The notes: generated from the sequence alone by a model not told the origin. DNA of 64,000 nt from Gemmatimonadota bacterium (GCA_040905325.1 JBBDRS010000038.1:68801-132800); one strand, 5' to 3'. Shown: positions 1 to 14,409, counted from the first letter of the stretch. Made by a program: numbers and translations.

Positions 1-282
1 CTCAAGCGCCAAGAGGAGCCGGGTCGCGTGCCCGAGCGCCGCATCACAACTGCTGCGGTCCACCGGGAAATCTTGAATCCACATCGCCGAGCGGTTCACG
101 TCCGCGAGGGGGATGGCATCGAGTGAGGCCATGGATTCGGCCGGGATGATCTGCGGGGGAACTGATCCACCCATGTCTACCCACCTGGTATTGGTTGGCA
201 CGACCGCGCTCGCGAGGCCGCCCGGGCCGACGCCGATCAGCGCCGTCGCAAGAAACACCAACGTGCTACGCACTGCTCCCAT
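1..282 (-). CDS. hypothetical secreted protein, N-terminal part (gene runs off the window start)
   Basis: Own minus-strand translation from ATG at 282-280 gives MGAVRSTLVFLATALIGVGPGG..., a signal-peptide-like N-terminus. GAGGAG lies 6 nt upstream, third codon positions are GC-rich, and the frame is open to position 1. It is absent from the ORF track because it is truncated. Confidence 0.4.
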   Translation of the reverse strand, partial: MGAVRSTLVFLATALIGVGPGGLASAVVPTNTRWVDMGGSVPPQIIPAESMASLDAIPLADVNRSAMWIQDFPVDRSSCDAALGHATRLLLALE

Positions 283-315
283 CGTGAACTCCTCAACCGG
301 ATAATGTCCCCGCAG

Positions 316-555
316 TTACTCCCCGCCCGTCGGGTCGAGCTCACCGTCCAGAATCGCTCTTGCGACCTCCGGTCTCGAGTCGGCGAGATAGACCTCCAGT
401 GCCTGGAGCCACCAGGATATGAGAGTGAGTGGGCTCAGGCCACTCCGGTCGTCGGTCAGATCGAACTCGGCTCGCTTTACCAAAGCCTCGCATGCGTTGC
501 TCCCGTCCGAGCGCCTTCGCAGCTCGGCGAGGACCCAAGAAGTTGCAAAGCGCAT
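316..555 (-). CDS. hypothetical protein (79 aa)
   Basis: ORF-track ORF with GC-rich third positions. It ends 33 nt upstream of the next minus-strand start at 282, which suggests an operon. No recognisable motif. Confidence 0.35.
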   Translation of the reverse strand: MRFATSWVLAELRRRSDGSNACEALVKRAEFDLTDDRSGLSPLTLISWWLQALEVYLADSRPEVARAILDGELDPTGGE

Positions 556-576
556 TATCTCTTCCGTAGCAGACCT

Positions 577-816
577 TCAACCGCAGCCGGGCCGGGCTTG
601 CAGGCCGCCACCCGCGGCACCTACTAGGCCATAGAACGGGATCGTCTCGCCCGTCGAGTTGTCGACCGGCAACCAAACGCTGCCCCCTTCCGGAACGTAA
701 CAGGAGAGCACCGGGCGGTTAGTGAGGTTCCCAGCAGCGAACGGGAGGTCGTGGGAGGCGGAGCCGCTGGAAACCGTGCCACTGAAGGTGACCCGTGTGC
801 TACCTACCTCTCCTCG
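577..816 (-). pseudogene. 5'-truncated coding remnant (no usable start codon)
   Basis: Own translation gives ...GSTRVTFSGTVSSGSASHDLPFAAGNLTNRPVLSCYVPEGGSVWLPVDNSTGETIPFYGLVGAAGGGLQARPGCG*. Third positions are strongly GC-rich, but an in-frame TGA lies immediately upstream (817-819) and there is no ATG. It sits between a G-rich non-coding stretch and the IS. Confidence 0.3.
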
Positions 817-1015
817 TCAGCCCATCCCCCCGATCGCCGAGGGGCCATCCTCCGGAAAATGGGGAGGGGGTGGGGGCATCCCCGTCCGTGCTCGGGCGCG
901 ACTCTCCCGGGATACCGGCGCTGCGGGGCTTGCTGTGTACCTCCATGGAGGCTCGGTAATGCCGGGGGGGGGGTGGGGGGTGGAGGTCCTATCGGTGGGG
1001 CGGGTACGGACCGGG

Positions 1016-1054
1016 CACATGGGTAACAGGATGATCCGAGCACATGGGTAACAC
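1016..1054. repeat. left terminal repeat block of the IS (two direct copies of CACATGGGTAAC)
   Basis: Read directly: cacatgggtaacagg at 1016-1030 and cacatgggtaacac at 1041-1054. Confidence 0.7.
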
Positions 1055-1093
1055 TCAACGCAAACTGAGGCACCTTCAGCCAAGGGGTGCCCG

Positions 1094-2272
1094 ATGCCGT
1101 GGAGTGAGACGTGTCGAATGGAAGAACGGATGCGGTTCGTCCTGGAGGCCCTGGAGGGCTGGGACTCGATGAGCGAGCTGTGCGCCCGGTGCGGGATCAG
1201 CCGTCGGGTGGGCTACAAGTGGATCGATCGATACGAGCGCGAGGGCCTCGAGGGGCTGGCGGATCGGTCGCGGGCTCCGCATCGCCAGCGCGCGGCGACG
1301 CCGCCGGAGGTGGTGGAGGCGATCGTAGCCCTTCGGAAGGACCATCCCACCTGGGGGCCTCGGAAGCTGAAGGCGTGGCTGGAGCGGGCCAAGCCGCGAA
1401 CGCGGTGGCCGTCCTGCAGCACGATCGGCGCGATCCTGAAGCGGGAGGGTCTCACGCGCCCGCGCCGGCGCCGAACGCTCAAGCCGGGTGTGTGGCGCCC
1501 AGCTCGAACGGGGCCGGACGTGCCGAACCGGGTGTGGACGGCCGACTTCAAGGGCGAGTTCCGCCTCGGGTCCGGCCGCTTGTGCTACCCGCTCACCGTG
1601 CTGGACGCTCACAGCCGGTTCCTGCTCGAGTGTCGTGGGCTCCCGAGCACGGCGAACGCCGGCGCCCGCGCGGGGTTCGAGCGCGTCTTCCGGGGCTACG
1701 GGCTCCCGGAGGTCATCCGCACGGACAACGGCGTGCCGTTCAGCACGCAAGCCGTGGCCGGGCTGTCGCAGCTCGCGGTGTGGTGGATCCGGCTGGGCAT
1801 CCGGCTCGAGCGGGGCCGGCCGCGACATCCGGAAGACAACGGCGCCCACGAGCGCATGCACCGGACCCTGAAGGCCGAGGCGACTCGCGCGCCCGCCCGA
1901 ACTCGGGCGCTTCAGTAGCGGAGGTTCAACCACTTCCGCGAGATCTACAACGAGCAGCGGCCGCACGAGGCACTCGGGCAGGAGACGCCGGCCAGCCTCT
2001 ACTCGCCGTCGGAGCGATCGATGCCAAAGAAGCCGGAAGCGCTTTGCTATCCGGACCGCTTCGAGACGCGCCGCGTGAACAACCACGGCCAGGTCCGCTG
2101 GCGAGGTGAACAATACTTCGTGAGTGAGACCCTACGCGGCCAGCCCCTGGGCCTCGACTTCCAGGACTGCGGTGATTGGAATATCTACTTCGGTCCGTGT
2201 CTCGTCGCCGTTCTCGACGAGCAACACGGCCGTCTCCGGAGGATCGGTGCACGAGCTCGGAGACGACGTTAA
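1094..2272 (+). pseudogene. IS481-family DDE transposase interrupted by one in-frame TAG (1916-1918)
   Basis: ORFs 1094-1918 and 2021-2272 share a frame. The N-terminal part has an HTH region (ELCARCGISRRVGYKWIDRYEREG) and the core has rve-like motifs (VWTADFKG..., IRTDNGVPF). Read-through gives ...ALQ*RRFNHFREIYNEQRPHEALG..., the conserved integrase-core tail. Confidence 0.85.
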
Positions 2273-2286
2273 TGTCTCCTTTCGCC

Positions 2287-2320
2287 GTTACCCATGTGGT
2301 CGGTCAGAAGTGTTACCCAT
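2287..2320. repeat. right terminal repeat block of the IS (inverted copies GTTACCCATGTG / GTGTTACCCAT)
   Basis: Read directly: gttacccatgtg at 2287-2298 and gtgttacccat at 2310-2320. These are reverse complements of the left-end motif. Confidence 0.7.
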
Positions 2321-2591
2321 CTGCCAGTCCGGTCCGCGCCTGCCCAGCTCCCCTCCCGACTCCGTCCACGCATCTCGAGGACCAGAGCACCGGCTCGTCT
2401 GCGAATCGCGCAGCCTGTGACGCGCCCCCGGTCACGCCTTGGGACGTGGCGTCCCGGCGAACCGCAGCCGCCTCGTGCCTCCGGTACCCCGTGCCGCTCC
2501 TTCCATACGAGGGTGGCGCCGGGTTCCAGCTACGGACGGCCATGGCCGGTCCGCGGCGGGCGCGGTGCGGGCAAGAAGGAAGGGCGCGCGG

Positions 2592-3050
2592 TCACACCAC
2601 ATGGAGCCTCCCTGCCCGCTCGGCCTCCGTGCTCTCCATTCTCCCGCCCACCACCACCTCCTCCCGGTCGCGGATCCACGCGCGGAGTTCGCCTGCCGTG
2701 AACACGAGCGTGCCGTCCAACTTCCGGTGTGGGATCGGCTCGCCCTCGATCGCCCTGCCCGTCCTTCCGTAGACGAAGCTCTTCGGTCTCCCGAGGGCCT
2801 CCGCTACCTCGGCCACTCCGATCCGGGTCTCCGCCGGCACGAGCCACAGGCGCTCCCGCCATGTCCAGGGAGGTGACCCCTCCCGCTCCTCCTCTTGCGG
2901 CCCCCCTTCCCCGCCCTGGCCCTCCTCCTCGGCAATCGCCGTCAGGCACCGTGCCACCTCGGCAGCGTCAAGCGCGGTCCCCGGAGGCGCCGCCTGGCAC
3001 CAGGTGAGGAACTCGGCGAGGGTTGGGACGACCGGGGACGCCGTGTCCAT
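2592..3050 (-). CDS. excisionase/AlpA-like helix-turn-helix DNA-binding protein
   Basis: The C-terminal part RIGVAEVAEALGRPKSFVYGRT...IPHRKLDGTLVFTAGELRAWI matches the HTH_17/excisionase-type pattern. The ORF-track ORF runs to 3077; ATG at 3050 (MDTASP...) is taken as the start. Confidence 0.55.
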   Translation of the reverse strand: MDTASPVVPTLAEFLTWCQAAPPGTALDAAEVARCLTAIAEEEGQGGEGGPQEEEREGSPPWTWRERLWLVPAETRIGVAEVAEALGRPKSFVYGRTGRAIEGEPIPHRKLDGTLVFTAGELRAWIRDREEVVVGGRMESTEAERAGRLHVV

Positions 3051-3185
3051 TACGTGTCCACGACTCCGCAAGACCAATAACGGCGCGGCTTTCTGAAAGG
3101 CTGAGAATGCGTCATTATCTGCCCTACCCCCTCTCGGTCGTCCGACTCGATGCCGAGCGGGTCGGCGGGAGTCCGCGTCATCGGG

Positions 3186-3992
3186 CTACAGCTCCTCGGG
3201 GCGGACATGCCCACCGTCGCCGCCGGGGAAGGTCGGCTCGTCGCGCTCCTCCTGGACGAGCTCGCCGGGCCGGGGGGGCTTCCGATGCGTACCGCCGGTC
3301 TGCTCCGGGAGCGCCAAGCGCACCTTTTCCGCGTCCTCGCCGCCGTCCGCAATGATCGAGGCCAGGACCGCCTGCGGGTCCTCGCCGGCCGCAATTCGGG
3401 CCACCGCCACGTCCGGGAGCTTGGTGAAATCAACCTTTGCCACCACCGACCGAATGTCGACACGCCGGCTGTATCTGTTCGGGGCGTGCGACTCAGCCAA
3501 GCGCTCAAGGAGTCGGTCGGAATGTTCGCGCTCGGTGTAGATCCTCGGGAGAAAACCTTCACAATCGCGCTGCGGACTCGGGCCAGGCTCGCCCTCGGGG
3601 GTGAGAGGATGGTCCTCTCGGGCGCCGCCGCAGCGTTCGCACCAGCGAGGGTCGCGGGATGGTAGGCCGCTTTTCTTATCGAACCGGACACGCTCCACGC
3701 CGTGAACTCCACGCTCGATCATCGCGGCCTCGAGTACGTCGCCGTACATCTCCCGGGCCAGCTCAAGGGCCTCCTGGAACTCGGGGTCGAACCGCCACCC
3801 GGAGTTGTAGAGCGAATCGACGTGCAGCCCGCTCGCCCTTGCGGCCTCCCCCTTTTTTCCGCAAAGCGCGTAGGCTCTCAGGAAACCCCTCTTCCTTGGA
3901 TTCTCGATGTGCCGGAAGGCACTCTCCACCATCTCTTCCGCGCCTGCGGGCGTGGGGCTCCTGTCTGATCCGCTCACCCTCCCTCCTCCCAT
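3186..3992 (-). CDS. phage terminase small-subunit-like HTH protein
   Basis: The N-terminal pattern FLRAYALCGKKGEAARASGLHVDSLYNSGWRFDPEFQEALELAREMYGDVLEAAMIERGVHG followed by ...HSDRLLERLAESHAPNRYSRR resembles the common TerS layout (HTH, then E..RRA..G, then SD.LL..LLKA..P.KY). A Cys-containing insertion (CERCGG...) sits between them. The start could be ATG 3932. Confidence 0.45.
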   Translation of the reverse strand: MGGGRVSGSDRSPTPAGAEEMVESAFRHIENPRKRGFLRAYALCGKKGEAARASGLHVDSLYNSGWRFDPEFQEALELAREMYGDVLEAAMIERGVHGVERVRFDKKSGLPSRDPRWCERCGGAREDHPLTPEGEPGPSPQRDCEGFLPRIYTEREHSDRLLERLAESHAPNRYSRRVDIRSVVAKVDFTKLPDVAVARIAAGEDPQAVLASIIADGGEDAEKVRLALPEQTGGTHRKPPRPGELVQEERDEPTFPGGDGGHVRPEEL

Positions 3993-4099
3993 GCCTGGCG
4001 TTTGTTGTTACGGACACCGTCGTCCTGCGGCACGAGGGGCCACAGCCGGGCGGGCGCTGGGCGGGCGCAGCCAAGCATGAGGCGACCCTTCCGAACCCC

Positions 4100-4400
4100 G
4101 GATAGGGGTGCTTCCAATAGCACCCCCCCTATAGGGGGGTAGAGAGCACCCATAGCACCCGGCCTACTCTCCCAACGGTTTTCTATGGGTGTTTGTCGGA
4201 ATCCAGGACACCCATACTTTACCCCTCTCCCGCAACGGCTTTCTATGGGTGCCCGGTTGTTCACCCGGCCCACCCGGTCCACCCAGTCAGGGGCCTTTCC
4301 CTTGTCGCACAACGGATTTCTATGGGTGCGACCCCTAAACACCCGTACTTTTGCCTTGTGGCACAACGGGTTTCGAGGGATACGGGTGAAATGCGATACA
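4100..4400. repeat. iteron array / putative replication origin of the island
   Basis: Direct repeats of CAACGGnTTTCTATGGGTG occur at 4169-4191, 4227-4251 and 4304-4328, with a degenerate copy at 4358-4388. A companion motif ACACCCrTACTTT occurs at 4208-4221 and 4339-4352. Also present: an inverted half-site GCACCCATAG at 4146-4155, a hairpin GGGGTGC/GCACCCC at 4104-4125, and the 16-bp palindrome CCCCCCTATAGGGGGG at 4124-4139. Confidence 0.6.
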
Positions 4401-4425
4401 CCCGGGTACCCGGTCCCTGGCACTC

Positions 4426-5760
4426 TCATGATTCCCCCCCCGGCACGAGGAGCCCCCCGTCCAGTTCGTCGAGATCTCCCTCGCGCAGGCCCCGCTCGAT
4501 CACCGACCTCACAGTCTGGTCCCCGGCGCCCAGGACACCCAAGACCCCGCAGTACTTCTTGCGGATGGCGTAGCGGGTCAGTGAGCCCTTCTCCTTGAGG
4601 AGTTGCTGGATCCGGCCCACGATGACCACGTACTCCCGCTGCGCTTTTAGGTCCGCGTCCGCCGTGCTTGTTTTCTCGAGGGCAGCCGGCACGAGCACCC
4701 CGCCGGCCTCCCGTCGGAGCCACATCCCCGAGAAGGGCGGCGAGTAGTTCGATTTCGGGATCTCGAACCGGAGGTATCGGCTCGCCTCGTCCTCCTGGAG
4801 GCCGTAATCCTTCGCTTGGTCACGCCGGAGCCTCTGGAGGGTGGCGACCCAGCGCACGCCGTCGACGAGGGCGGTGGAGCCTCTGACGATTTCCTGACCG
4901 CCACCCTCCCGGATCCCCGTCTGTGAAATGTGGTGCAGGCCCAAGACCGTCGCGCCGGTTTCCCGTCGGATTACCTCGAGGGCTTCGACGAACCGAGTCG
5001 CATCTTCTTCCGTGTTTGCGCGGCCGCCACGCGAACGACTGATGGGATCGACGACGATGGCGCGTAGGTCGGGGATCTGCTGCGCGGTCGCGATCATGCG
5101 TCGGACGAGGTGCGTGTGGCGCACCTCCCCGTCGTGTCCCGCGCGGGTAAGCAGATTGTCCTCGGCGACCCGCGAAGCGATGTAGAGGCGTTCGGCCACC
5201 AGGGCACGCGGGAACGGCTCGCCGACTAGACGAGCCAGTCCCTCGTAGTGGGTGAGAAGCGTGCGCCCCCGTCGATGCAACTCGGCGTCGTCGTCCTCAG
5301 CAGCCAAATAAAGGAAGGAACCCGGCTCGCCCACCTGCATCCCGAGGAAGGGGATGCCTGCGGCAACGGAGAAGCCCAACTGAAGGGCCAAATTGGATTT
5401 CCCGGCACCGCCCATGGCAGCGAGGAGCCCGACCACGTCCAGTGGGAACACACCGTCGTCGCCGGCCCGTAGGAGCCAGCGGCGCGGCGGAGGATCCGAA
5501 GCCAAGTACCGCCCGAACCGGACTGATGCCGGGTCGAATAACGGTCTCGGCTCCGCGATCGCCTCCTGTACGAGCCGAGCCGCGTTAGGCACGCCGCGGT
5601 CCTCGAGCGCGCGCTGTGCGGCCGCGCCGAGTTCGGTCAGCATCGACCGCGCCGGTCGGTCTCCGTTGCGCGCGAGTTCCGCGAGGGCCTGAACCGCCTC
5701 GTCGGGGGGCCGCGTGCCAAAGCCCAACTCGTCCAGCGCCGCGCTGATCTCGTCTCTCAC
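4426..5760 (-). CDS. RecA-fold AAA_25/RepA-like replicative helicase with C-terminal winged-helix-like domain
   Basis: Walker A LLAAMGGAGKSNLALQL; Walker B-like LRAIVVDPISR. The LGLHHISQTG and STALVDGVRW motifs are typical of AAA_25 proteins of mobile elements. GTG start overlaps the Prim-Pol stop (GTGA). Confidence 0.75.
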   Translation of the reverse strand: MRDEISAALDELGFGTRPPDEAVQALAELARNGDRPARSMLTELGAAAQRALEDRGVPNAARLVQEAIAEPRPLFDPASVRFGRYLASDPPPRRWLLRAGDDGVFPLDVVGLLAAMGGAGKSNLALQLGFSVAAGIPFLGMQVGEPGSFLYLAAEDDDAELHRRGRTLLTHYEGLARLVGEPFPRALVAERLYIASRVAEDNLLTRAGHDGEVRHTHLVRRMIATAQQIPDLRAIVVDPISRSRGGRANTEEDATRFVEALEVIRRETGATVLGLHHISQTGIREGGGQEIVRGSTALVDGVRWVATLQRLRRDQAKDYGLQEDEASRYLRFEIPKSNYSPPFSGMWLRREAGGVLVPAALEKTSTADADLKAQREYVVIVGRIQQLLKEKGSLTRYAIRKKYCGVLGVLGAGDQTVRSVIERGLREGDLDELDGGLLVPGGES

Positions 5761-6758
5761 GATGCCTCCGCGAGGATGGCCCGCGCGCGCTTCGCGCGGG
5801 TCCGGGGGCCGATGTCCATCCCAAGCACACGGCGGGCGCTCCGTGCGGCCTCCCGAACGTCACCCCCGTGTTCGAGGATGGTCATGACCGAGAACGAATC
5901 GTGCGCGTGCCCGTCACCGAGAGGGCAAGAAGCGTGATGCGAGTAAGCACGACCGTCCAAGATCACAACACCGGGGTCACCGGTGGTCGAGCCAGGCGCC
6001 AGCCAGCGGTCACCCCGCTCCTGGTAGCCGTTCCGCGTGAGCACCGCACTGACGGGCACCCTCGCGTTCCAGGTATCGATGACCGATGGTCCGTCACCCC
6101 CACGCCGCGGCGTCGGGACCGAGGGTGCTTGTGCGGGCTCGGGCTCCGGGGGCGCCCATGGGCAGGCGCCCTCCATCGCGGGGCGGAGCGAGTCCCAGTC
6201 GACCCACAGCCGCAGCAGCGAGTCCGGAAGGAGGGGAATCTCTGCCCGGCTCGCCGGGGGGTCGCCGCCGAAACGGTACGGCATCCGTGTGCCTGGGTGC
6301 ATCGAGTAGGGGAGCACATCTTGGACGGCTCCAGCGCGGAGCTCGAAGATTGTCTCCAGCGCGCCAGATCCGTCCCGGGCCGGCCACCTAAGGGCGCGGT
6401 GGGAGAGGTCATGACCCTCGGGTACGCGACAGAAAAGCTTGGCCGGCTTCGCCGGATTGCCGACGACGGCCAGGCCGTCCCGCTCGAGGAGTGCCGTGTA
6501 ATCGATCCCTACCGAAGCGAAGGCGAGAACGATAAGGTCCGCGTCGGTGTCTCCGTCCACAGCACCCGTGCCGCTGAGTCCGTGGACGGCGCCAAGTCCA
6601 TAGCCCTGCCGCACGTATTCGTCCAAATCCTTGCCGGAGATCCGCCGGTGCTGCCACCCGCGAAGAAAGGCCCCCTTCCCTCGAACGGGCGTCAGAAAGA
6701 GGCCCAGCTCCGAGAAGTATCGACGAGCCCCGAGCAGGCGAGCGACGCGCCCCCTCAT
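5757..6758 (-). CDS. bifunctional DNA primase/polymerase (Prim-Pol) domain protein
   Basis: The N-terminal LFLTPVRGKGAFLRGWQHR...GLGAVHGLSG..VDGDTD pattern fits the Prim-Pol N-terminal domain. It lies directly upstream of, and is translationally coupled to, the helicase. Confidence 0.65.
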   Translation of the reverse strand: MRGRVARLLGARRYFSELGLFLTPVRGKGAFLRGWQHRRISGKDLDEYVRQGYGLGAVHGLSGTGAVDGDTDADLIVLAFASVGIDYTALLERDGLAVVGNPAKPAKLFCRVPEGHDLSHRALRWPARDGSGALETIFELRAGAVQDVLPYSMHPGTRMPYRFGGDPPASRAEIPLLPDSLLRLWVDWDSLRPAMEGACPWAPPEPEPAQAPSVPTPRRGGDGPSVIDTWNARVPVSAVLTRNGYQERGDRWLAPGSTTGDPGVVILDGRAYSHHASCPLGDGHAHDSFSVMTILEHGGDVREAARSARRVLGMDIGPRTRAKRARAILAEAS

Positions 6759-6829
6759 CGCCCGCCCTTGATGAGCCAGGCCAACCAGGCGAAGACGACC
6801 CGGATGCGAAAGCGGAGGGCCCGGAGCAT

Positions 6830-7195
6830 CTACAGATCCTCCCCGAGGTCTACGACCGGCCGGACCTCTCGCAGGGTGTATCCGGGATCGGCATTACTGC
6901 CGAGGCAGTGTGCTACCCGATGCCCATCCCCGTACCCAACCGGCGACCCCGGAGGGCCGGCGCCGTGCGTGTGCGGGCGGCCGCAGTAGGGGCAGGAGTC
7001 GATGCGTAGATAATCGTACTCTGGTCTCGGGATCCGGCGGGCCTCCACCACCGGAGGCCGGTCGAGCTCTGCGGCGATGTCGCGGAGGCGGGTCGCTGCG
7101 GTCGTGCGGGAAGTGACGCGCACCACGAACGGCTCGGCCAGGATCCCGGGGATCTCGACGCGGAGGGTTGTCGGTTCGGTCGTCGGCCGGATCAT
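6830..7195 (-). CDS. hypothetical protein with Cys/His cluster (CPYCGRPHTHG...HRVAHC)
   Basis: ORF-track ORF. Its ATG overlaps the RHH stop (ATGA). A possible zinc-ribbon-like motif is present but no family is recognised. Confidence 0.45.
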   Translation of the reverse strand: MIRPTTEPTTLRVEIPGILAEPFVVRVTSRTTAATRLRDIAAELDRPPVVEARRIPRPEYDYLRIDSCPYCGRPHTHGAGPPGSPVGYGDGHRVAHCLGSNADPGYTLREVRPVVDLGEDL

Positions 7196-7395
7196 CGGAC
7201 CCCGGCCGGGAGATCGAGAGTCTCGTCCGCGACCAGCTCCGCCCGGGCCGCGCGGAGGGCCGCCCCTCGGACATACGTCGACAGAGGAACCCCTCTCTGG
7301 CCCGCAGCCGCCTCGAGTAGGCGACGTTCATCGCTCCCCAAGCGGAGGGTCCACACCGGACGAGGCTCCCGATTCGTGATTTCTCTCCGTCCCAT
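7192..7395 (-). CDS. ribbon-helix-helix (CopG/MobC-like) small DNA-binding protein
   Basis: WTLRLGSDERRLLEAAAGQRGVPLSTYVRGAAL fits a beta-strand/helix/helix RHH pattern. ATG at 7395 is preceded by AAGGAG; the ORF track starts at TTG 7401. Confidence 0.5.
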   Translation of the reverse strand: MGRREITNREPRPVWTLRLGSDERRLLEAAAGQRGVPLSTYVRGAALRAARAELVADETLDLPAGVR

Positions 7396-7503
7396 TTGCA
7401 ACTCCTTGCGTATTGCGTTTCTCAGCGCACCGCGCTATGATGAGAACGTAAGGCACAGCGCATTGCCGCGCAAGTCATCGTCTATTGCACTTTCGGAGAA
7501 GCC
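7396..7503. promoter_or_regulatory. divergent control region between RHH and XRE genes with TTGC/ATTGC repeats
   Basis: GC is locally lower. TTGC occurs six times (7396-7417, 7462-7466, 7484-7488), including the palindrome TTGCcgcGCAA at 7463-7473. TATGAT at 7435-7440 is a possible -10. Confidence 0.35.
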
Positions 7504-8334
7504 ATGCACACCGACACGGCGGGCTACGGAGCCCGGATCGCCCGAGCGCTCGAACGGGGTCCGCGGCCGATGAGCGCCCGAGAGCTCGCCCGCAGGGTGG
7601 GGGAGCTCTACCCGGATCTCAGGGGCACGAGCTACGGCGGGATTCGCCAGTACGCAGAGGGGAATATCCAGAGACCGCGCGTTGATCTCCTGCGGGCAAT
7701 CGCGGACGTGCTCGGCGTGCGCGCCGAGTGGTTGGCGTTCGACGAGGACGAGATGACCGAGGACCTGCAGCGCGCACGGGAGGCGCGCGAGGCGGGCGAG
7801 GAGCCGGATCCCGGTGCAACCTGGGGCGCTGAGGACTTCCTGCGCGTGGTCGGCGGGGAGCTCGGGGACGGCCGCCTCCTCGTTGACCACCCAGCCGAAC
7901 CCTTCCTCCTGGAGGGGTGGGCGCGCCTCCTGGATGCCGGGATCTCACCCGCGCATTCAGAGGAGGCCACCCCGGAGACCACAAGGGAGGAGGGCCTACA
8001 GGGGATCGGCCGGGCGGCACTTGGCCAGCCTCGCCCGATCGAGTTCGACCCCATCGTGATTCCACCGGATGTGCCGAGGGATTCTCGGCACCATTACGCG
8101 ATCGCCGTGCATGTCGGACAGATGCTACGCGTGGGGTTGGCCGGGATCTTCCCCTACGCGCGAGACCTCGGCGAGGCGGAGTTGACCGACTACGTGGCGT
8201 CGACGCTCCAGGCCCTCCACCGCGTTGCTGACGCCGCGCGTCGCCGAGCACCAGAGTTCGAGTTCCCCACGCCCTCCCCGGACGAGCCGGCCGAGGGCGA
8301 TTCCCCTTCCACGGAGCACGATCATGGCACGTAA
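7504..8334 (+). CDS. XRE-family HTH transcriptional regulator (repressor-like) with uncharacterised C-terminal domain
   Basis: N-terminal YGARIARALERGPRPMSARELARRVG...GIRQYAEGNIQRPRVDLLRAIADVLGV matches the HTH_3/Cro-CI pattern. About 190 further residues have no recognisable motif. Confidence 0.7.
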   Translation: MHTDTAGYGARIARALERGPRPMSARELARRVGELYPDLRGTSYGGIRQYAEGNIQRPRVDLLRAIADVLGVRAEWLAFDEDEMTEDLQRAREAREAGEEPDPGATWGAEDFLRVVGGELGDGRLLVDHPAEPFLLEGWARLLDAGISPAHSEEATPETTREEGLQGIGRAALGQPRPIEFDPIVIPPDVPRDSRHHYAIAVHVGQMLRVGLAGIFPYARDLGEAELTDYVASTLQALHRVADAARRRAPEFEFPTPSPDEPAEGDSPSTEHDHGT

Positions 8335-9502
8335 CCACCCAGGATCTATCGACCGGCACGGCGACCGCTGGAGAATCCGCCTGTCCGTCGCCGGCCAGCG
8401 CCACACCTTCTACATGGAGGGGGACACCGACAAGCACGATGTGCAACAGTATGCCCGCGAGAAGGACACGGAGCTCCGTGGTCGGGCCGGTCGAGGTCTG
8501 CCCAACACCCGGTCGGCCTTCTCCGAACTCCTGCAACGCTACAAGGCCGCTGGGGTGCCCGGAGCCAAGAAGAAGGGCAACATCGCCAAGCGGACCCGGA
8601 GGAGCTACTCCACGTCCCTGAAGGCGTTCGAAGCCTTCTTCGTGCGAGAGAGCGGGGACCCCCAGGTGCGCGAGGTGAACGAAGGACACGTGAACCTCTT
8701 CCTCGACTGGCGCGAGCACCGTTCACCCACGGGGCAGCGGCGGAAGAAGGCGCTATCTGCCCGATCCATCCAGAAGGAGCGGGTCGCCCTCCATGTCCTC
8801 TTCGAGTATGCCCGCCGGATCGGGCTCGTGGACACAAACCCCGTGACCGACAAAACGAAGGCCCCGGAGGGGGACCAGCGGGAGCCGGTGATCCTGACCA
8901 CGGATCAGTACGAAGCACTACTCCGGGCGTGCGAGGGGCGGGACATGCTCCGGCTCTACACCCTCGTGCTGGGGGAAACGGGCGTCCGGTGCGACTCGGA
9001 AGCCCTCTGGCTCCGGTGGTCCGACGTGGACCTCGAGCGCGGCTTCTTGACCATTGAGAGCGCCAGGTCAAAGGGGCAGCGCACCAAGAGCGGGAAGAGC
9101 CGGAAGGTCCCCATGACGCGCCGTCTGCGGGAGGCGATCCGGGAGCACATGGCGACGTACCGTTTCAGGACGTACCGAGACGAGCGCACCCGGTGGGTGT
9201 TCCACCACGAACTCGACCGACGCCACGCGAAGGCGGGGGCACGGCTTGGGAGTCTCAGGCGGGCGTTCTACGCGGCGGCGAAGCGGGCAGGGCTCCCCGC
9301 CGATCTACGCCAGCACGATCTCCGGCACCGGCGGGTCACCGAATGGCTCCGCGACGGGCACCCCGCCCACAAGGTCCGGAAGGCGATGGGCCACTCGGAT
9401 CTGCGGACCACCCTGGCCTACGAGCACATGGTGGAGGACGATCTCTTGTCCTTGGTCCAGGAATCCACCGAGGACGAACGTCGGGCGATTGCCCGAGGGT
9501 AG
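8324..9502 (+). CDS. tyrosine-type site-specific recombinase (phage integrase family)
   Basis: SAM-like N-terminal domain, then catalytic residues in ...GVRCDSEAL..., HDLRHRRVTEWL, and GHSDLRTTLAYEH (R..HxxR..Y). ATG 8324 (MARNHPGSIDRHGDRWRIR) overlaps the XRE stop by 11 nt. Confidence 0.9.
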   Translation: MARNHPGSIDRHGDRWRIRLSVAGQRHTFYMEGDTDKHDVQQYAREKDTELRGRAGRGLPNTRSAFSELLQRYKAAGVPGAKKKGNIAKRTRRSYSTSLKAFEAFFVRESGDPQVREVNEGHVNLFLDWREHRSPTGQRRKKALSARSIQKERVALHVLFEYARRIGLVDTNPVTDKTKAPEGDQREPVILTTDQYEALLRACEGRDMLRLYTLVLGETGVRCDSEALWLRWSDVDLERGFLTIESARSKGQRTKSGKSRKVPMTRRLREAIREHMATYRFRTYRDERTRWVFHHELDRRHAKAGARLGSLRRAFYAAAKRAGLPADLRQHDLRHRRVTEWLRDGHPAHKVRKAMGHSDLRTTLAYEHMVEDDLLSLVQESTEDERRAIARG

Positions 9503-9522
9503 GCCACGGCCAACACAGAAGA

Positions 9523-9560
9523 AGCCCCCAGGGCGATCCTTGCCGCTCTGGGGGCTATCT
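9523..9560 (+). terminator. hairpin downstream of the integrase (weak U-tail)
   Basis: AGCCCCCA (9523-9530) pairs with TGGGGGCT (9549-9556), followed by ATCTT. Confidence 0.35.
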
Positions 9561-9610
9561 TGTGTCCACGGCGTGTCCACGAGCAGTGTGGAAAACTCCG
9601 TAAGTCCAAG

Positions 9611-9681
9611 AGGCGCCGCCCGGATTCGAACCGGGGATGAAGGATTTGCAGTCCTCTGCCTTACCACTTGGCCACGGCGCC
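9611..9681 (-). tRNA. tRNA-Cys (anticodon GCA)
   Basis: Hand-folded cloverleaf: acceptor GGCGCCG/CGGCGCC, anticodon loop CUGCAAA, T-arm CCCGG-TTCGAAT-CCGGG, discriminator U. CCA is not encoded. Confidence 0.9.
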
Positions 9682-9739
9682 GAAATACGATGGGGAGGCC
9701 CCGCGCGGGGTCCGCGACGAGCCTCCCCTTCGATGGAAG

Positions 9740-9812
<73 letters not shown>

Positions 9813-10082: not shown

Positions 10083-11717
10083 ATGCCTACCCGCTGCCCA
10101 TCACACCTTTGCGCTGCTCTTGCCTCGGTCCTGATCCTGGGTACGAGCCCCTGGGGAGCGCCCCCCCCGCTTGCTGGTCAGGACGCCGGTGCCGGAGAGG
10201 CCGCGGCGATCAACTCCTGGACCGCGGACCCCCTGGTTCCACGGGGGCGGATCTTCTTCGGAATCTCACCGTATAGCACCAGCATTTCCGGCCTGCATGG
10301 GGACGAGGGAGACGGCTCGCTGGCCGCAGGATTCTTCCTCTCCGAGTTCGGCCCCACTCAGGCTCCGGAACTCGCCGACGCGGCCCAGCGCCTGAGCGCC
10401 CTCATGGGGGAGGACCCGCCCGCGTGGTCCCTCCGTCTCGGCTCCGTTGGGGGGCATGTGCACGCGGAGGAGCAGGTGCTTCCGGTGCACGTCGGATATG
10501 GGCTCCATGACCGCTTGACCGTGGGCGTGACCCTCCCCTTTGTGCGACGGAGGGTGGATTCCCGGGTCACGCTCGCCGGGACGGGCGCAACGGTGGGTGA
10601 GAACCCACTCTCCGGCGATCCGGCCGCCGTCTCCGACTTCTTTGCCGGGGCCGAGGAGGCGCTCACCGGCCTTCAGGAGTTCCTGGACACCGAGTGCAAC
10701 GGCGAGGGGGAGGAGGGGGACGGGGACGGCTCGACCGGGGGTCTCGTGAGCTGCGAGGAGGGCGAGGACCTCCTCGTCCGGGCAGGCGCCTTCCTCTCCG
10801 AGCTCGAGACTGCCTATCAGGAGGAGACGGTCTTCCCACTGCGGGGCTCGATCGGGGCGATGGCGATCCAGGGACGATGGGACGACGTGCGCCCCGCCCT
10901 CGAGGAACTGGGCCTGGTACCTCCCGAAACGGTCCCCGTTGCGAACCTCCCGCTCTCGGACGCCACCTTCGCCGAACGCTTCGTGGACCCGATCTGGGGG
11001 ACCGACGGATTCCCCAGGGCCAGCCCCGAGGCCTTTCTGGAGATGGGCGACGTAGAGCTGCACCTGGTGCTGGGCTTGCTGCAGCCTGGGCCCGGCTCGG
11101 GCTCATCCGACGATGCCATACGGGTCCGGTCCACGCTGGTCGCGTCCCTCCGCCTGCCCACCGGAACTGCGGATTCGCTTCAAGCGGTGGCACCATTCGC
11201 TACGCCGCGGGGGGTTGGTGGAGCCGGAGCCAAGCTGGTCACGGACGTGCTCCTGCCTGGCAGGTTCGGCGCGCTCGCGGTCGTGGAGGGGTGGTGGCAC
11301 GGGGAGGCGGAAACCTCCCTCGTCGCTCCCGATCCCGCCAATCTGCTTGGAGTGGGGGCCCTGGCCCGCACCCCCGCCACATGGAGACCCGGCGCGACCC
11401 TTCGCCTCCTTGCCATTCCCCGCTTTCATGTGGTGGCCCCGATCTCCCTGGGCGCCGGCTACGAACTCGATCACCGCAGGCCGCACTCGTATACTCTTCC
11501 CGACCTGCCGGGGACGGTGCCTCCAGGCGCACGCGGGAATTCCACCGTTCACCGGATGCACGCCGAGGTCCGGTTCCACGGGACGGAAGGCGCCGAAGCC
11601 ATGGGGCTTCCCTTCCCATTCGAAGGCGTCGTCACCTACTCCAGGAGCCTGTGGGGGAGTGGCCCATTCGCCCCGACCGACCGCACCGTTCGCGTCGTGA
11701 TCCGGGTTCTGCGGTAG
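10083..11717 (+). CDS. hypothetical secreted / outer-membrane protein
   Basis: Signal-like start MPTRCPSHLCAALASVLILGTSPWGAPPPLAGQ, an acidic low-complexity insert, and alternating beta-strand-like C-terminal segments. No family recognised. The start is taken at ATG 10083 rather than 10035. Confidence 0.55.
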   Translation: MPTRCPSHLCAALASVLILGTSPWGAPPPLAGQDAGAGEAAAINSWTADPLVPRGRIFFGISPYSTSISGLHGDEGDGSLAAGFFLSEFGPTQAPELADAAQRLSALMGEDPPAWSLRLGSVGGHVHAEEQVLPVHVGYGLHDRLTVGVTLPFVRRRVDSRVTLAGTGATVGENPLSGDPAAVSDFFAGAEEALTGLQEFLDTECNGEGEEGDGDGSTGGLVSCEEGEDLLVRAGAFLSELETAYQEETVFPLRGSIGAMAIQGRWDDVRPALEELGLVPPETVPVANLPLSDATFAERFVDPIWGTDGFPRASPEAFLEMGDVELHLVLGLLQPGPGSGSSDDAIRVRSTLVASLRLPTGTADSLQAVAPFATPRGVGGAGAKLVTDVLLPGRFGALAVVEGWWHGEAETSLVAPDPANLLGVGALARTPATWRPGATLRLLAIPRFHVVAPISLGAGYELDHRRPHSYTLPDLPGTVPPGARGNSTVHRMHAEVRFHGTEGAEAMGLPFPFEGVVTYSRSLWGSGPFAPTDRTVRVVIRVLR

Positions 11718-11739: not shown

Positions 11740-13401
11740 TCAACGCACGCCGAGAAGCTCCTTCGCGTGTTCGCGGGAAGCGCTGGACTCCGGATCACCA
11801 CCCAGCATCCTCGCGATCTCGCGCACCCGCTCCTCTCCAGAGAGGGGACTCACATCGGCCGCGGCGACCCCGTCTCTCGTGGCCTTCACCACTCTCAGGT
11901 GCCGGGCCCCGAGCGAGGCGACCTGTGCCAGGTGGGTGATCACCAGAACCTGGTGCGTCCTCGCCACCTCGCCCAGCTTCGCGGCCACTGCATTCGCCAC
12001 CTGGCCCCCGATTCCGGCGTCGATCTCGTCGAAGACCAGGGTGGGAACCCGGTCCGCACGGCTCAGAATGGACTTCAGGGCGAGCATCACCCGCGAGAGC
12101 TCCCCCCCGGATGCGATTCGAGACAGGGGGCGCGGCGGAAATCCGGGATTGAGGGAGGCGAGAAAGGTGACACGCTCGGCTCCATGCCGACCGGGCTCTT
12201 CGAGTGCCTCGATCGCCACCTCCATCACCGCCCCCTCGAACCCCAGCGCGGGGAGCACGCCTTCTACCTCCCGAGCCAGGGCACGCGCAGACGTTCTCCG
12301 CTTCTCCGAGAGACGGTCCGCGGCGTCGGTCAACTCCTGGCGTGCGACGTGAATCCTGCGCTCCAGCTCGTCGAGGGAGAGGGTTCCGCCGTCCAGCTCG
12401 TCCAACTCCCGCCGGAACCGATCCCGCGTTTCAAGTACGTCCGTGAGATCAGGTCCATACTTTCGCTTGAGGCGTGACAGGGCGTGGAGACGACTCCGCA
12501 ACCCCTCCGCGCGCCGGGGGTCCACTTCGACCCCTGAGGCGTAGCTCCCCAGGGTCCTGCCTGCCTCCGTAATCTGGTGGTAGGCGCCGTCCAGCTCCGA
12601 CGCGAGCCCCGCCAGGGACGGGTCCACCTCTGCAAGCCTCCGGAGAAGTGCCCGGGCGGCGGCCACCTGCTCGGAAGCCGATCCCTCGTCGCCGTAGAGC
12701 AGGCCGTGCGCCTGCGTCGCCTTGGTGGCGAGTTCCTCGGCGTGGTCCAGCCGGGAGAGCTCCCGCTCCGCCTCCTCGTCCTCGCCCTGGCGCGGAGTGG
12801 CCTCCGAAATTTCGCTCAGCTGGAAGCGCAGGAAATCGGCACGGCTCTCGAGCTCTCGGTGCCTCTCCGCCCGCTGCGCCCGTTCCTCCTGCAGCGCGAC
12901 CAGGATCCCATGTCGGTCGGCGACTTCCGCCGCCAACTCCCCCGCTTCGGCAAACCGATCCAGGATTGCGCGCTGCTCCTCGGGGTGCAGGAGGGTCTGG
13001 TGCTCATGCTGCCCGTGCATGTCCACGAGCGCTCGCCCGAAGGCGCCCACGGCGGCCGCGGTGGCCGGGGATCCGTTGATCCAGGCGCGGTTGCGACCCT
13101 CCGCATGAACTTCCCTCCGAAGGATCAGAAGCTCTCCCTCCCGGGGAAACCCGAATTCCTCGAGGCGCGTCAGGAGCTCCGGGTGGGCGGCGAGTTCGAA
13201 GACCCCCTCGATGATGGCCCGATCCGCGCCCGCCCGCACTGTTTCCGAGAGCGCACGTTCCCCGAGGAGGAGGGAGAGCGCGCCGATGAGGATCGACTTC
13301 CCTGCCCCGGTCTCGCCGGAGAGCACATTCAGCCCGGGACCCAGCTCCATCGAGAGGTCCCGAATGACGGCGAAATCCCGAATTCGGAGTTCCAAGAGCA
13401 T
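11740..13401 (-). CDS. recN: DNA repair protein RecN
   Basis: MLLELRIRDFAVIRDL...LNVLSGETGAGKS (Walker A), a long coiled-coil middle, and C-terminal SGGELSRVMLALK...LVFDEIDAGIGG. The conserved N-terminus begins at ATG 13401; the ORF track extends to 13500. Confidence 0.9.
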   Translation of the reverse strand: MLLELRIRDFAVIRDLSMELGPGLNVLSGETGAGKSILIGALSLLLGERALSETVRAGADRAIIEGVFELAAHPELLTRLEEFGFPREGELLILRREVHAEGRNRAWINGSPATAAAVGAFGRALVDMHGQHEHQTLLHPEEQRAILDRFAEAGELAAEVADRHGILVALQEERAQRAERHRELESRADFLRFQLSEISEATPRQGEDEEAERELSRLDHAEELATKATQAHGLLYGDEGSASEQVAAARALLRRLAEVDPSLAGLASELDGAYHQITEAGRTLGSYASGVEVDPRRAEGLRSRLHALSRLKRKYGPDLTDVLETRDRFRRELDELDGGTLSLDELERRIHVARQELTDAADRLSEKRRTSARALAREVEGVLPALGFEGAVMEVAIEALEEPGRHGAERVTFLASLNPGFPPRPLSRIASGGELSRVMLALKSILSRADRVPTLVFDEIDAGIGGQVANAVAAKLGEVARTHQVLVITHLAQVASLGARHLRVVKATRDGVAAADVSPLSGEERVREIARMLGGDPESSASREHAKELLGVR

Positions 13402-13515
13402 GGAGGAAGATATGCGAGCGGCCAGGGGTCTCTCAATGCTCCGATGGGTCAAGGGATGCCCGGGATCGCCTCGCCGCGGGTCGGATCCTGACAGGGCCAC
13501 TTCACGTGGCGGGGC

Positions 13516-14409
13516 TCAAAGGGCCCAGTTCAGCTTCCGACGGAGGGTATCGAAGAAGGTCTGTCCGGGGAAGCGGACGAGGGCGATCCCCTTTCCGCCC
13601 GGCCGCACCTCGAGCCGGTCCCCGGAATCCATGGGAATCCCCGTCTGTCCGTCGGCGGTGACCACGAGATCGTCATCGCGGTCCACGGCCCGCACGGTCA
13701 CGGTTCCGTGCGCGGGCAGCACGAGGGGACGCATGGCGAGTGTGTGGGGGGAGATGGGGGTCACGACGAGCGAGGTCATGTCCGGCGCCAGGATCGGTCC
13801 CCCGGCCGAGAGCGAGTAGGCGGTGGAGCCCGTGGGGGTGGCGACGATCACGCCGTCCCCCGAGAATCGTCCTATCTCTTCTCGCCCCCCGTCCCATCCG
13901 ACACTCAGGTCGAGGCGCACCACCCGCGCCACCCCTCCCTTGTGGAGCACCAGGTCGTTCAGGGCCCAGAGCCTGGCGCTCGTCCCGTCGTGCTCCCGGG
14001 CAATGGTCCCTTCGATGGTGGTCCGGAGGTCCAGCCAGCCCTGGCCGGAGCGGAGCATCCGGAGCCCGTGCTCCAGATCGGCGGCTCCCAGCGAGGTGAG
14101 AAACCCGAGGTGACCGAGGTTCACGCCGAGGATGGGCGTACCGCGGGCTACCGCCCGGGTCCCCCTGAGGAGGGTCCCGTCGCCTCCCAGGGTCAGGAGG
14201 AGGTCCGGCGGGACTTCTGAGTCCTCCAGGCTCCGGCGGCCGTCGAAGCCCCCCTCGCAAAAGGATTTCTCGGGGAAGACCTCGAAGCCGAGCTCATCCG
14301 AGAGCTCCAGGACTTCCCGCAGGACCGTGTTCACCCCCTTGGTCCGGGAGCGGCAGACGACCCCTACGCGTCGAAAATCCGAAGGGAGTGATGGGGGCAC
14401 CGTTTTCAT
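13516..14409 (-). CDS. nadK: NAD(+) kinase
   Basis: TLGGDGTLLRG (GGDGT motif) and ...GDGVIVATPTGSTAYSLSAGGPI..., the NAD kinase signature. Confidence 0.9.
   Translation of the reverse strand: MKTVPPSLPSDFRRVGVVCRSRTKGVNTVLREVLELSDELGFEVFPEKSFCEGGFDGRRSLEDSEVPPDLLLTLGGDGTLLRGTRAVARGTPILGVNLGHLGFLTSLGAADLEHGLRMLRSGQGWLDLRTTIEGTIAREHDGTSARLWALNDLVLHKGGVARVVRLDLSVGWDGGREEIGRFSGDGVIVATPTGSTAYSLSAGGPILAPDMTSLVVTPISPHTLAMRPLVLPAHGTVTVRAVDRDDDLVVTADGQTGIPMDSGDRLEVRPGGKGIALVRFPGQTFFDTLRRKLNWAL

Follow-up and report, generated by a model that had tools for sequence, protein, structure and literature searches.

A stretch of 64,000 nt with about 68% GC, which lies on a 263-kb contig of a Gemmatimonadota metagenome-assembled genome (MAG) and is referred to here as the window, contains a small island that is best explained as belonging to a family of Gemmatimonadota islands which replicate themselves and integrate at the 3' end of a tRNA-Cys gene. 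Leftward from the tRNA-Cys 3' end the island encodes a tyrosine integrase (Int), an XRE-type regulator, a divergently read ribbon-helix-helix (RHH) protein, a small Cys/His protein, a Prim-Pol primase/polymerase, an AAA_25 helicase, an iteron array, a homologue of the phage small terminase subunit (TerS) and an HTH_17 protein (Table 1). The best single explanation of this arrangement, and one to which we assign a middling probability, is that the island is a phage satellite which follows the logic of the type B phage-inducible chromosomal islands (PICIs) and of the VEIMEs, which are integrative mobile elements encapsidated in virions.

The genes and repeats listed in the original prediction, which had been made from the nucleotide sequence, are real and lie where it placed them, and searches of the protein families in Pfam, PHROGs and NCBIfam agree with its inventory. 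All of the island genes have a coding-type GC content at third codon positions (0.77-0.85), and the gene overlaps that had been read as translational coupling are present, with lengths of 4 nt at 5757-5760 and 7192-7195 (TCAT on the + strand, which is ATGA) and of 11 nt at 8324-8334. The predicted lack of capsid, portal, tail, large terminase and lysis genes is likewise borne out: no structural or lysis family of Pfam or PHROGs was matched between 2341 and 9609, no relative of the large terminase subunit (TerL) or of the portal was detected in the window when the TerL and portal proteins of related phages were used as queries, and no prophage gene set (large terminase, portal, capsid, tail, lysis) was found in the window or in the 2.2 kb further left.

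The assignment of tRNA-Cys as the attachment (att) site is supported by the closest relative locus, which is represented by two contigs, L019 and L020. The RecN encoded there is 86% identical to that of the window, and the DNA is 78% identical from window position 14000 down to 9609, where the homology ends, exactly at the tRNA-Cys 3' end, and the sequences diverge. The last 17 nt of the tRNA, ATCCGGGCGGCGCCTCT, occur downstream in three direct copies in L019 and in at least two in the shorter L020, spaced by 113-nt units. Positions 6757-7060 of L019 hold two tandem 113-nt units, each ending in these 17 nt; a GGACAC pair and a different integrase of 306 aa lie beyond the two units. Positions 5261-5488 of L020 hold the first unit, the second core copy and the start of the second unit, inside which the contig ends. 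These repeats look like the scar of repeated integration and excision. Because direct copies of the 17-mer repeat downstream of tRNA-Cys in both contigs, it is a plausible recombination core; it is identical in L015, L017, L018 and L021. The integrase, more than 548 homologues of which were found (those with a named source being mostly from Gemmatimonadota), does adjoin the tRNA 3' end as had been predicted, although the distance from its stop codon is 107 nt and not 109 bp.

Two other Gemmatimonadota, represented by L015 and L022, have the same chromosomal locus, composed of tRNA-Cys, tRNA-Gly, a protein of 520-545 aa and RecN, and their integrases are 61-62% identical to that of the window, while the cargo is completely different. 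Positions 1-9900 of L015 encode a 62%-identical integrase together with an AAA_21/AAA_15 ATPase and a UvrD helicase (Gabija-like), a DUF499 protein and an AAA_11/AAA_12 helicase, which is apparently defence cargo; this island has no replication or packaging genes. These loci show that insertions at the tRNA-Cys site are frequent enough to call it a hotspot. One gene set shared here by every relative, which together with the lack of an att repeat the original prediction had named as evidence against it, is not what is seen, since L015, L022 and L019/L020 all differ; the island was acquired.

The claim that the island encodes a TerS-like protein was examined most closely, and four independent lines of evidence agree that the product is a true homologue of phage small terminase. 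First, it matches phrog_4044 ("terminase small subunit"; Table 1). Second, distant relatives are encoded immediately 5' of Terminase_3 or Terminase_6N genes and portal-sized genes in an Ardenticatenaceae prophage (L005), an IMG/VR phage contig (L006) and another contig of viral origin (L007); the TerS relative and TerL of Ruegeria phage Tedan are set apart by a single small gene. Third, alignment with hhalign of a profile of the island proteins to a profile of proteins encoded upstream of phage TerL gives a probability of 99% (E 4.8e-18, 113 columns), and the match spans both the helix-turn-helix (HTH) and the oligomerisation region of phage TerS. Fourth, the best named fold matches in BFVD of an AlphaFold model (predicted local distance difference test score, pLDDT, 69) are annotated phage TerS proteins, with E values of 3e-6 to 1e-3. 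The gene is thus placed with packaging proteins and not in a non-packaging family, which was the original prediction's own test of this assignment. No match was found in the PDB, either by sequence or by a fold search with the TerS model.

The island protein differs from phage TerS by an additional conserved CxxC...H...C insertion (approximately residues 112-150) and by a tail of about 90 residues. This long form appears to be a modest family, with 48 cluster representatives at E <1e-30 in an exhaustive profile search. A scan with TerS of a genome collection that lacks the source genome returned one distant prophage only. Close relatives (46-63% identity) are present on four other contigs, each beside replication genes of another type, namely D5_N/DUF5906 or DnaG-Toprim-DUF5906 primase-helicases; one of these contigs, L010, adjoins tRNA-Lys. 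On contigs L003 and L009 an HTH_17 gene comes directly after TerS, non-structural cargo comes next (an AAA_13 ATPase in L009), and TerL is absent for 3.5-4.4 kb. That TerS is present without TerL in these two contigs is the strongest argument that a TerS of the zinc type may work in elements which have no large terminase of their own. The C-terminal 65 aa of the Cys/His protein are 51-56% identical to open reading frames (ORFs) directly upstream of TerS in L003 (1753-1953) and L010 (9544-9747), the window copy lying instead 5' of Prim-Pol, which may point to a joint role of TerS and the zinc protein. After the cargo genes in L003 there is also a tRNA 3' fragment (5620-5665, - strand; T arm and acceptor strand, ...GGTCGCCGGTTCGAGCCCGGCTGGATCCA), which was considered as the att site of that element, but its orientation is unfit for a simple att repeat.

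The iteron array, which had been predicted to lie 3' of the helicase gene and is presumed to be the replication origin, is far above chance level. The 19-mer CAACGGNTTTCTATGGGTG has three exact copies where 0.01 is expected, and 7 of the 10 TAYGGGTG sites in the window fall within 4147-4388, in both orientations. The helicase itself is 63% identical to the PriCT_2-AAA_25 protein of L022/L023. Different iterons (GGTCCGCGAT, in several copies) occupy the same position in L003, directly after the replicase of that element.

Between the integrase terminator and the tRNA there is a tandem GTGTCCA-N4-GTGTCCA pair, a pattern that occurs twice in the 64 kb compared to an expected count of 0.08, the second occurrence lying over the start codon of the HTH_17 gene. 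The two copies are alike over 35-48 nt, with an alignment score of 39 as against 13.5 +/- 2.7 for shuffled sequences. The copy beside the tRNA is kept in every related island and is probably a protein-binding arm of the recombination site; the internal copy recurs in the same arrangement in L016, L023 and L021. The four half-sites that L021 has at the two places are all GTGCCCA, and because the two copies co-vary in this way it seems reasonable to suppose that one protein recognises both sites. This protein could be the integrase, through its N-terminal 84 residues (to which no family is assigned), or the HTH_17 protein, and the integrase is favoured because the pair is retained in L015, where no HTH_17 homologue is detected. 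An origin of the internal repeat from tandem islands was rejected, as the repeat has no core after it and four elements have the arrangement in their interior. Apl of coliphage 186 and Cox of P2 are dual-function excisionase-regulators, and the island resembles their systems in that short direct repeats, spaced by roughly a turn of the helix (in this case 11 bp), are found both beside an att site and at a point of gene control. It differs in that the HTH_17 protein is larger (152 aa) with a C-terminal HTH, in that the binder is here only a candidate, and in that the internal site covers the start codon of a gene within an operon and is not at a mapped promoter.

The chassis, which consists of the integrase and XRE genes and, divergently, the RHH, (Prim-Pol), helicase, small ORF and HTH_17 genes, recurs in L016, L017/L018, L021 and L022/L023, the last of these from the same sample as the window's Logan contig. 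In L016 and L022/L023 the HTH_17 gene is followed by TerL, which is not the case in L021 (Table 1), and TerL can on this account be regarded as an optional insert in a largely non-structural element. The TerL of L023 is followed by a 220-aa protein, PDDEXK_15 and SSB, not by a portal or capsid gene, and in the visible 4-6 kb after TerL in L016 and L022/L023 no portal-sized or capsid gene was found, the genes there being PDDEXK, SSB and small unknown genes instead. A PDB sequence search with the L016 TerL gave no match.

The HTH_17 protein, 48-62% identical to its homologues in L016 (62%), L017, L021 and L023, is encoded by a conserved gene of the chassis. HTH_17 is matched weakly by all five of the family members, and the HTH lies in the C-terminal half of the protein. 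The original prediction of an excisionase-like HTH protein is therefore upheld as to the weak HTH_17 match, but the gene lies 5' of TerL in two relatives, and excision is only one option among its possible roles. Its single-sequence structure model (pLDDT 45) was not used, and neither its sequence alone nor a profile gave a match in the PDB. Coupled to it by a TAATG overlap is a 43-aa ORF that is probably a ninth island gene; its C-terminus resembles ORFs 5' of the HTH_17 gene in L016 and L023, a likeness which may merely mirror the conserved DNA repeat. At the other end of the operon, L016 and L017 encode RHH homologues at the corresponding place, and L021 has a NikA-like RHH there by Pfam. 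The XRE protein is 44% identical to its counterpart in L017, and its C-terminal half has no Pfam match. The region between the XRE and RHH genes, in which the sigma-70 consensus was not found, is one that we infer to be a promoter/operator region.

If the island is a satellite, its components suggest the following cycle. The XRE protein would silence the leftward operon until a helper phage or stress lifted the repression. Int would then excise the island at the tRNA core, aided by the GTGTCCA-binding protein (which may be the Int N-terminus itself or the HTH_17 protein), and the same protein would also occupy the second copy of the module at the HTH_17 start codon, as feedback. Prim-Pol and the helicase would replicate the circle from the iterons, and the island TerS would recruit the large terminase of the helper phage to island DNA, which would leave in helper capsids.

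Among the closest known systems are the PICIs. The core components of PICIs as defined for SatelliteFinder are an integrase, a regulator, a primase-replicase, a capsid-morphogenesis gene and TerS; type B has four of these five and comprises islands like the Staphylococcus aureus pathogenicity islands (SaPIs) without a capsid-morphogenesis gene (PMC10085698). The island has, by function, four of the five: an integrase at the att-side end, a divergent regulatory pair, a primase-replicase with an adjacent origin, and TerS as the sole packaging gene, with no structural or lysis genes or other forbidden component, and no capsid-morphogenesis gene was matched in Pfam, PHROGs or NCBIfam. The regulation module has the divergent layout, but the XRE protein, which matches phrog_4 (9e-7), is below the HTH_3 cut-off, and the HTH_17 match (E 0.005) is likewise below its cut-off. 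The island differs from type B PICIs in that no sequence relationship of its proteins to those of SaPIs or of the Escherichia coli chromosomal islands (EcCIs) is seen, in that its replicase is Prim-Pol with AAA_25 and its TerS belongs to another family with a zinc-ribbon insertion, and in that no flanking att repeat was found; Gemmatimonadota also lie outside the reported host range. VEIMEs are small, capsid-less integrative elements of many marine phyla that encode an integrase, primase/helicase, AlpA/excisionase-type proteins and TerS homologues; they are defined by their recovery as concatemers from virus particles, and the nearest relatives of their TerS genes are found in environmental phages (PMC9618062). 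In gene content the island is similar, with a tyrosine integrase, primase/helicase, HTH protein and TerS and without a capsid gene.

The PICMIs (minimalist chromosomal islands that are phage-inducible) have no TerS, are inserted next to fis and use DUF3987/DUF5906 primases (PMC10803314). The island shares with them, and with P4, the minimal set of an integrase, an HTH_17/AlpA-type protein and a primase, and the primase used by the TerS relatives L003, L009 and L010 is of the DUF5906 type, which is among the PICMI-defining profiles; the island's own replicase is Prim-Pol/AAA_25, its site is tRNA-Cys, and no fis is seen nearby. The psu-delta-sid-epsilon-alpha genes of P4 have no match in any ORF of the window (Pfam, PHROGs, NCBIfam). 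The capsid-forming PICIs (cfPICIs) also encode capsid, portal and head-tail connectors (PMC10085698); the chassis relatives L016 and L022/L023 resemble them in carrying a large terminase, but no capsid, portal or connector was seen either in the window or in as much of the relatives as is visible. The original prediction had held that such elements were characterised mainly in Firmicutes and gamma-Proteobacteria, which overstates the novelty, as satellites have been reported from Actinobacteria (PMC10085698) and TerS-bearing, capsid-less integrative satellites from many marine phyla (PMC9618062). In the literature searched there is no mention of phage satellites together with Gemmatimonadota.

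Several observations weigh against the satellite reading. Neither a helper phage nor a circular junction, an excess of coverage or a copy derived from virions was identified. The roles of regulator and excisionase are assigned from weak HTH matches. The flanking direct repeats of the att site that had been predicted were not found: the 17-nt core is single-copy in the window, and a search that allowed up to 3 mismatches detected no further copy in window positions 1-9600 or in the 2.2 kb further left on Logan contig L008, about 11.8 kb in all. No empty-site sequence was matched, and the 113-nt unit of the closest relative has no match in the window. The Logan contig breaks, which fall at the tRNAs and at the insertion sequence (IS), are uninformative. 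An IS481 element lies 250 bp past the last island gene; a target duplication is not obvious, although the ends of the IS are only approximately defined. In L016 and L022/L023 TerL is present 3' of the HTH_17 gene. The satellite interpretation is supported in part: it stands on the gene inventory, the iterons, TerS, the tRNA-Cys site and the lack of virion genes, and is weakened by the missing att repeat, the unproven size and the TerL of the relatives; it is a well-supported prediction, not a demonstrated system.

Since no core was found leftward, the island must either exceed about 11.8 kb, with cargo, or have lost its distal end, and the window copy may be immobilised, decayed or larger than 7 kb. 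The minimalist size of about 7 kb that had been proposed is therefore not established, and the proposed left limit at 2444 matches no sequence feature, the IS481 element alongside having been overlooked. Seeded repeats, local alignments with shuffles, short-word BLAST against L008 and the relatives, and fuzzy core matching detected no significant att remnant at 2337-2600, at 1-1000 or in L008, and a local alignment of the tRNA 3' half to 2337-2600 scored at the null mean of shuffles. The islands of L015, L016 and L017 also have no core copy within 10-11 kb. A 13/14 match at 2984-2997, 46 nt from the GTGTCCA pair, was rejected, as it lies inside conserved HTH_17 coding sequence, the homologous codons of L016 differ from the tRNA, and there are about 8 matches with 4 mismatches in the window. 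Also rejected were the Logan contig ends at 2306 and 9636 as signs of att or excision (there is a further break within tRNA-Gly in the adjacent contig, and the IS contains the other end) and circularity of the 7.3-kb and 7.5-kb contigs, neither of which has an end overlap.

A serious rival explanation, next in probability although we consider it rather unlikely, is that a phage or phage-like element, once larger and equipped with a terminase, was truncated and left the island as an immobile remnant. The element would have had the original order int, regulators, replication, TerS, HTH_17, TerL, late genes and attL, from which an IS481-associated deletion removed everything beyond HTH_17, attL included, and TerS would be the element's own. 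The left half of a typical temperate phage map does run from int through replication to TerS, which is the order seen here; the HTH_17 homologue of L016 (62% identical) is followed directly by a TerL of 600 aa, and that of L022/L023 by a 136-aa gene and a TerL of 493 aa, so the ancestor of the window copy may have had TerL; and both the IS481 element 250 bp beyond HTH_17 and the lack of an attL core within 11.8 kb speak for this reading. In the 250 bp after HTH_17, however, there is a terminator-like hairpin, while neither TerL nor the 136-aa gene has left a trace, the L021 chassis without TerL marks TerL as an optional insert, the relatives that do carry TerL have no portal-sized or capsid gene in the 4-6 kb that follow it, and the zinc-type TerS occurs without TerL in L003 and L009.

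Another reading of the same relatives, which we regard as unlikely, is that they share a Gemmatimonadota-specific tRNA-Cys chassis with swapped single packaging genes, the zinc-ribbon TerS here, TerL in two relatives and neither in one. If it were true there would be satellites with just one terminase subunit, including a TerL-carrying, capsid-less type of which we know of no description, and the co-evolving 35-48-nt module would couple excision at the tRNA to HTH_17 expression. Less likely still is a phage-independent integrative replicative island (plasmid-like, mobilisable or a defence chassis) in which the TerS-like and HTH_17 proteins are only DNA-binding regulators, for although an integrase of this lineage is accompanied in L015 by defence cargo only, RHH proteins have weak matches to the relaxosome accessory proteins NikA/MbpA, and replicons with Prim-Pol and a RecA-fold helicase are common in plasmids, no relaxase, coupling protein or FtsK-like translocase was matched (Pfam, PHROGs, NCBIfam), the TerS homology spans the oligomerisation region as well as the HTH, and relatives with the same chassis carry TerL, for which we know of no role outside DNA packaging.

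Table 1. Features of the island, its flanks and its relatives (window coordinates unless a contig is named)
Feature	Position	Strand	Evidence or remarks
IS481-family insertion sequence, not part of chassis	~999-2340	+	Inverted repeats; LZ_Tnp_IS481, rve, rve_3 domains
250 bp between last island gene and IS	2341..2591		No att remnant, no TerL remnant
Terminator-like hairpin	2583-2598		After HTH_17 gene
HTH_17 (MerR/excisionase-type) protein, 152 aa	2592-3050	-	HTH_17 E 0.005, below Pfam cut-off
Internal arm-repeat copy: GTGTCCA pair (3043-3060) and ACTCCGCAAGACCAA	3043..3077	+	Over HTH_17 start codon
43-aa ORF	3050-3181	-	TAATG overlap with HTH_17 gene; called on Logan contig
TerS homologue	3186-3992	-	phrog_4044 4.9e-17
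Iteron array, presumed replication origin	4100..4400		Between helicase and TerS genes; local GC dip to 0.63
AAA_25 RecA-fold replicative helicase, 444 aa	4426-5760	-	Pfam 1.3e-37
Prim-Pol primase/polymerase, 333 aa	5757-6758	-	Pfam 1e-6; phrog_1156 DNA primase 4.6e-11
Cys/His protein, 121 aa, putative zinc ribbon	6830-7195	-	No family match (Pfam, PHROGs)
Small RHH protein, first gene of leftward operon	7192-7401	-	Weak TacA1, NikA-like, MbpA matches
Divergent control region between XRE and RHH genes	7402..7503		Relatively AT-rich; CTTGCG...CGCAAG inverted motifs
XRE-type HTH regulator, 276 aa, putative repressor	7504-8334	+	HTH_3 5.9e-4 (below cut-off); repressor families phrog_4 (9e-7) and phrog_8
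Tyrosine integrase, 392 aa	8324-9502	+	Pfam Phage_integrase 2.9e-26 and SAM-like N-terminal domain; phrog_1 1.5e-44
Terminator-like hairpin 3' of integrase gene	9523..9556	+	13-pair stem
Island-side arm by tRNA: GTGTCCA-N4-GTGTCCA pair (9562-9579), then ACTCCGTAAGTCCAA	9562..9608	+	
Presumed 17-nt attachment core AGAGGCGCCGCCCGGAT	9609..9625		3' acceptor strand and T-arm end of tRNA-Cys
tRNA-Cys(GCA), island right boundary, 3' end facing island	9610..9681	-	ARAGORN; Rfam 68.4 bits
tRNA-Gly(GCC)	9739-9812	-	ARAGORN, Rfam
L016: 600-aa TerL homologue directly after HTH_17	L016 4079-5881		phrog_9 3e-12; tblastn to Synechococcus phage S-CBS4 terL 1e-13
L022/L023: 136-aa gene, then 493-aa TerL after HTH_17	L023 3833-5314		phrog_2 4.6e-35
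L021: HTH_17, 132 aa, PD-(D/E)xK	L021		No TerL

The flanks of the island differ in character. On the right is conserved chromosome, with a 544-aa protein that has an apparent signal peptide and no Pfam match (10083-11717) and RecN (11740-13500), which NAD kinase and DXP synthase follow in relatives. On the left, the IS481 transposase gene (1094-2272) has an in-frame TAG at 1916-1918 that splits its domains, and the element has doubled subterminal CACATGGGTAACA motifs at both ends and no other copy in the window. An IS3-family element adjoins the AAA_25 helicase gene in L017 (5989-7238) and L018 (156-1341), and because it sits in that island the insertion of ISs into islands of this chassis can be considered recurrent. 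Beyond the IS481 element the GC content is 62-64% (window 1-750), and there are small genes without assignment and a 406-aa protein that may be island cargo (L008 1884-3104, 2.2 kb left of the window start), with a PD-(D/E)xK-like motif DVLVVCDPDVVIFSVK and a match to phrog_18195 (unknown function) at 3e-24. Two G-rich tracts lie there as well, at 861-876 (GGGGAGGGGGTGGGGG) and 961-985 (GGGGGGGGGGTGGGGGGTGGAGG), and the left-flank Logan contig ends at 972, inside the second.

Gemmatimonadota are a widespread phylum of soils and sediments with few cultured members. If the island is helper-dependent, the parasitism of phages by elements of the PICI/VEIME type would extend to this phylum, and related islands that differ in having TerS, TerL or no packaging gene would be useful in the study of how satellites capture the terminases of their helpers. 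The island family offers two testable handles: one is the insertion hotspot at tRNA-Cys, including the 17-nt core, and the other is the GTGTCCA module, whose copies co-vary.

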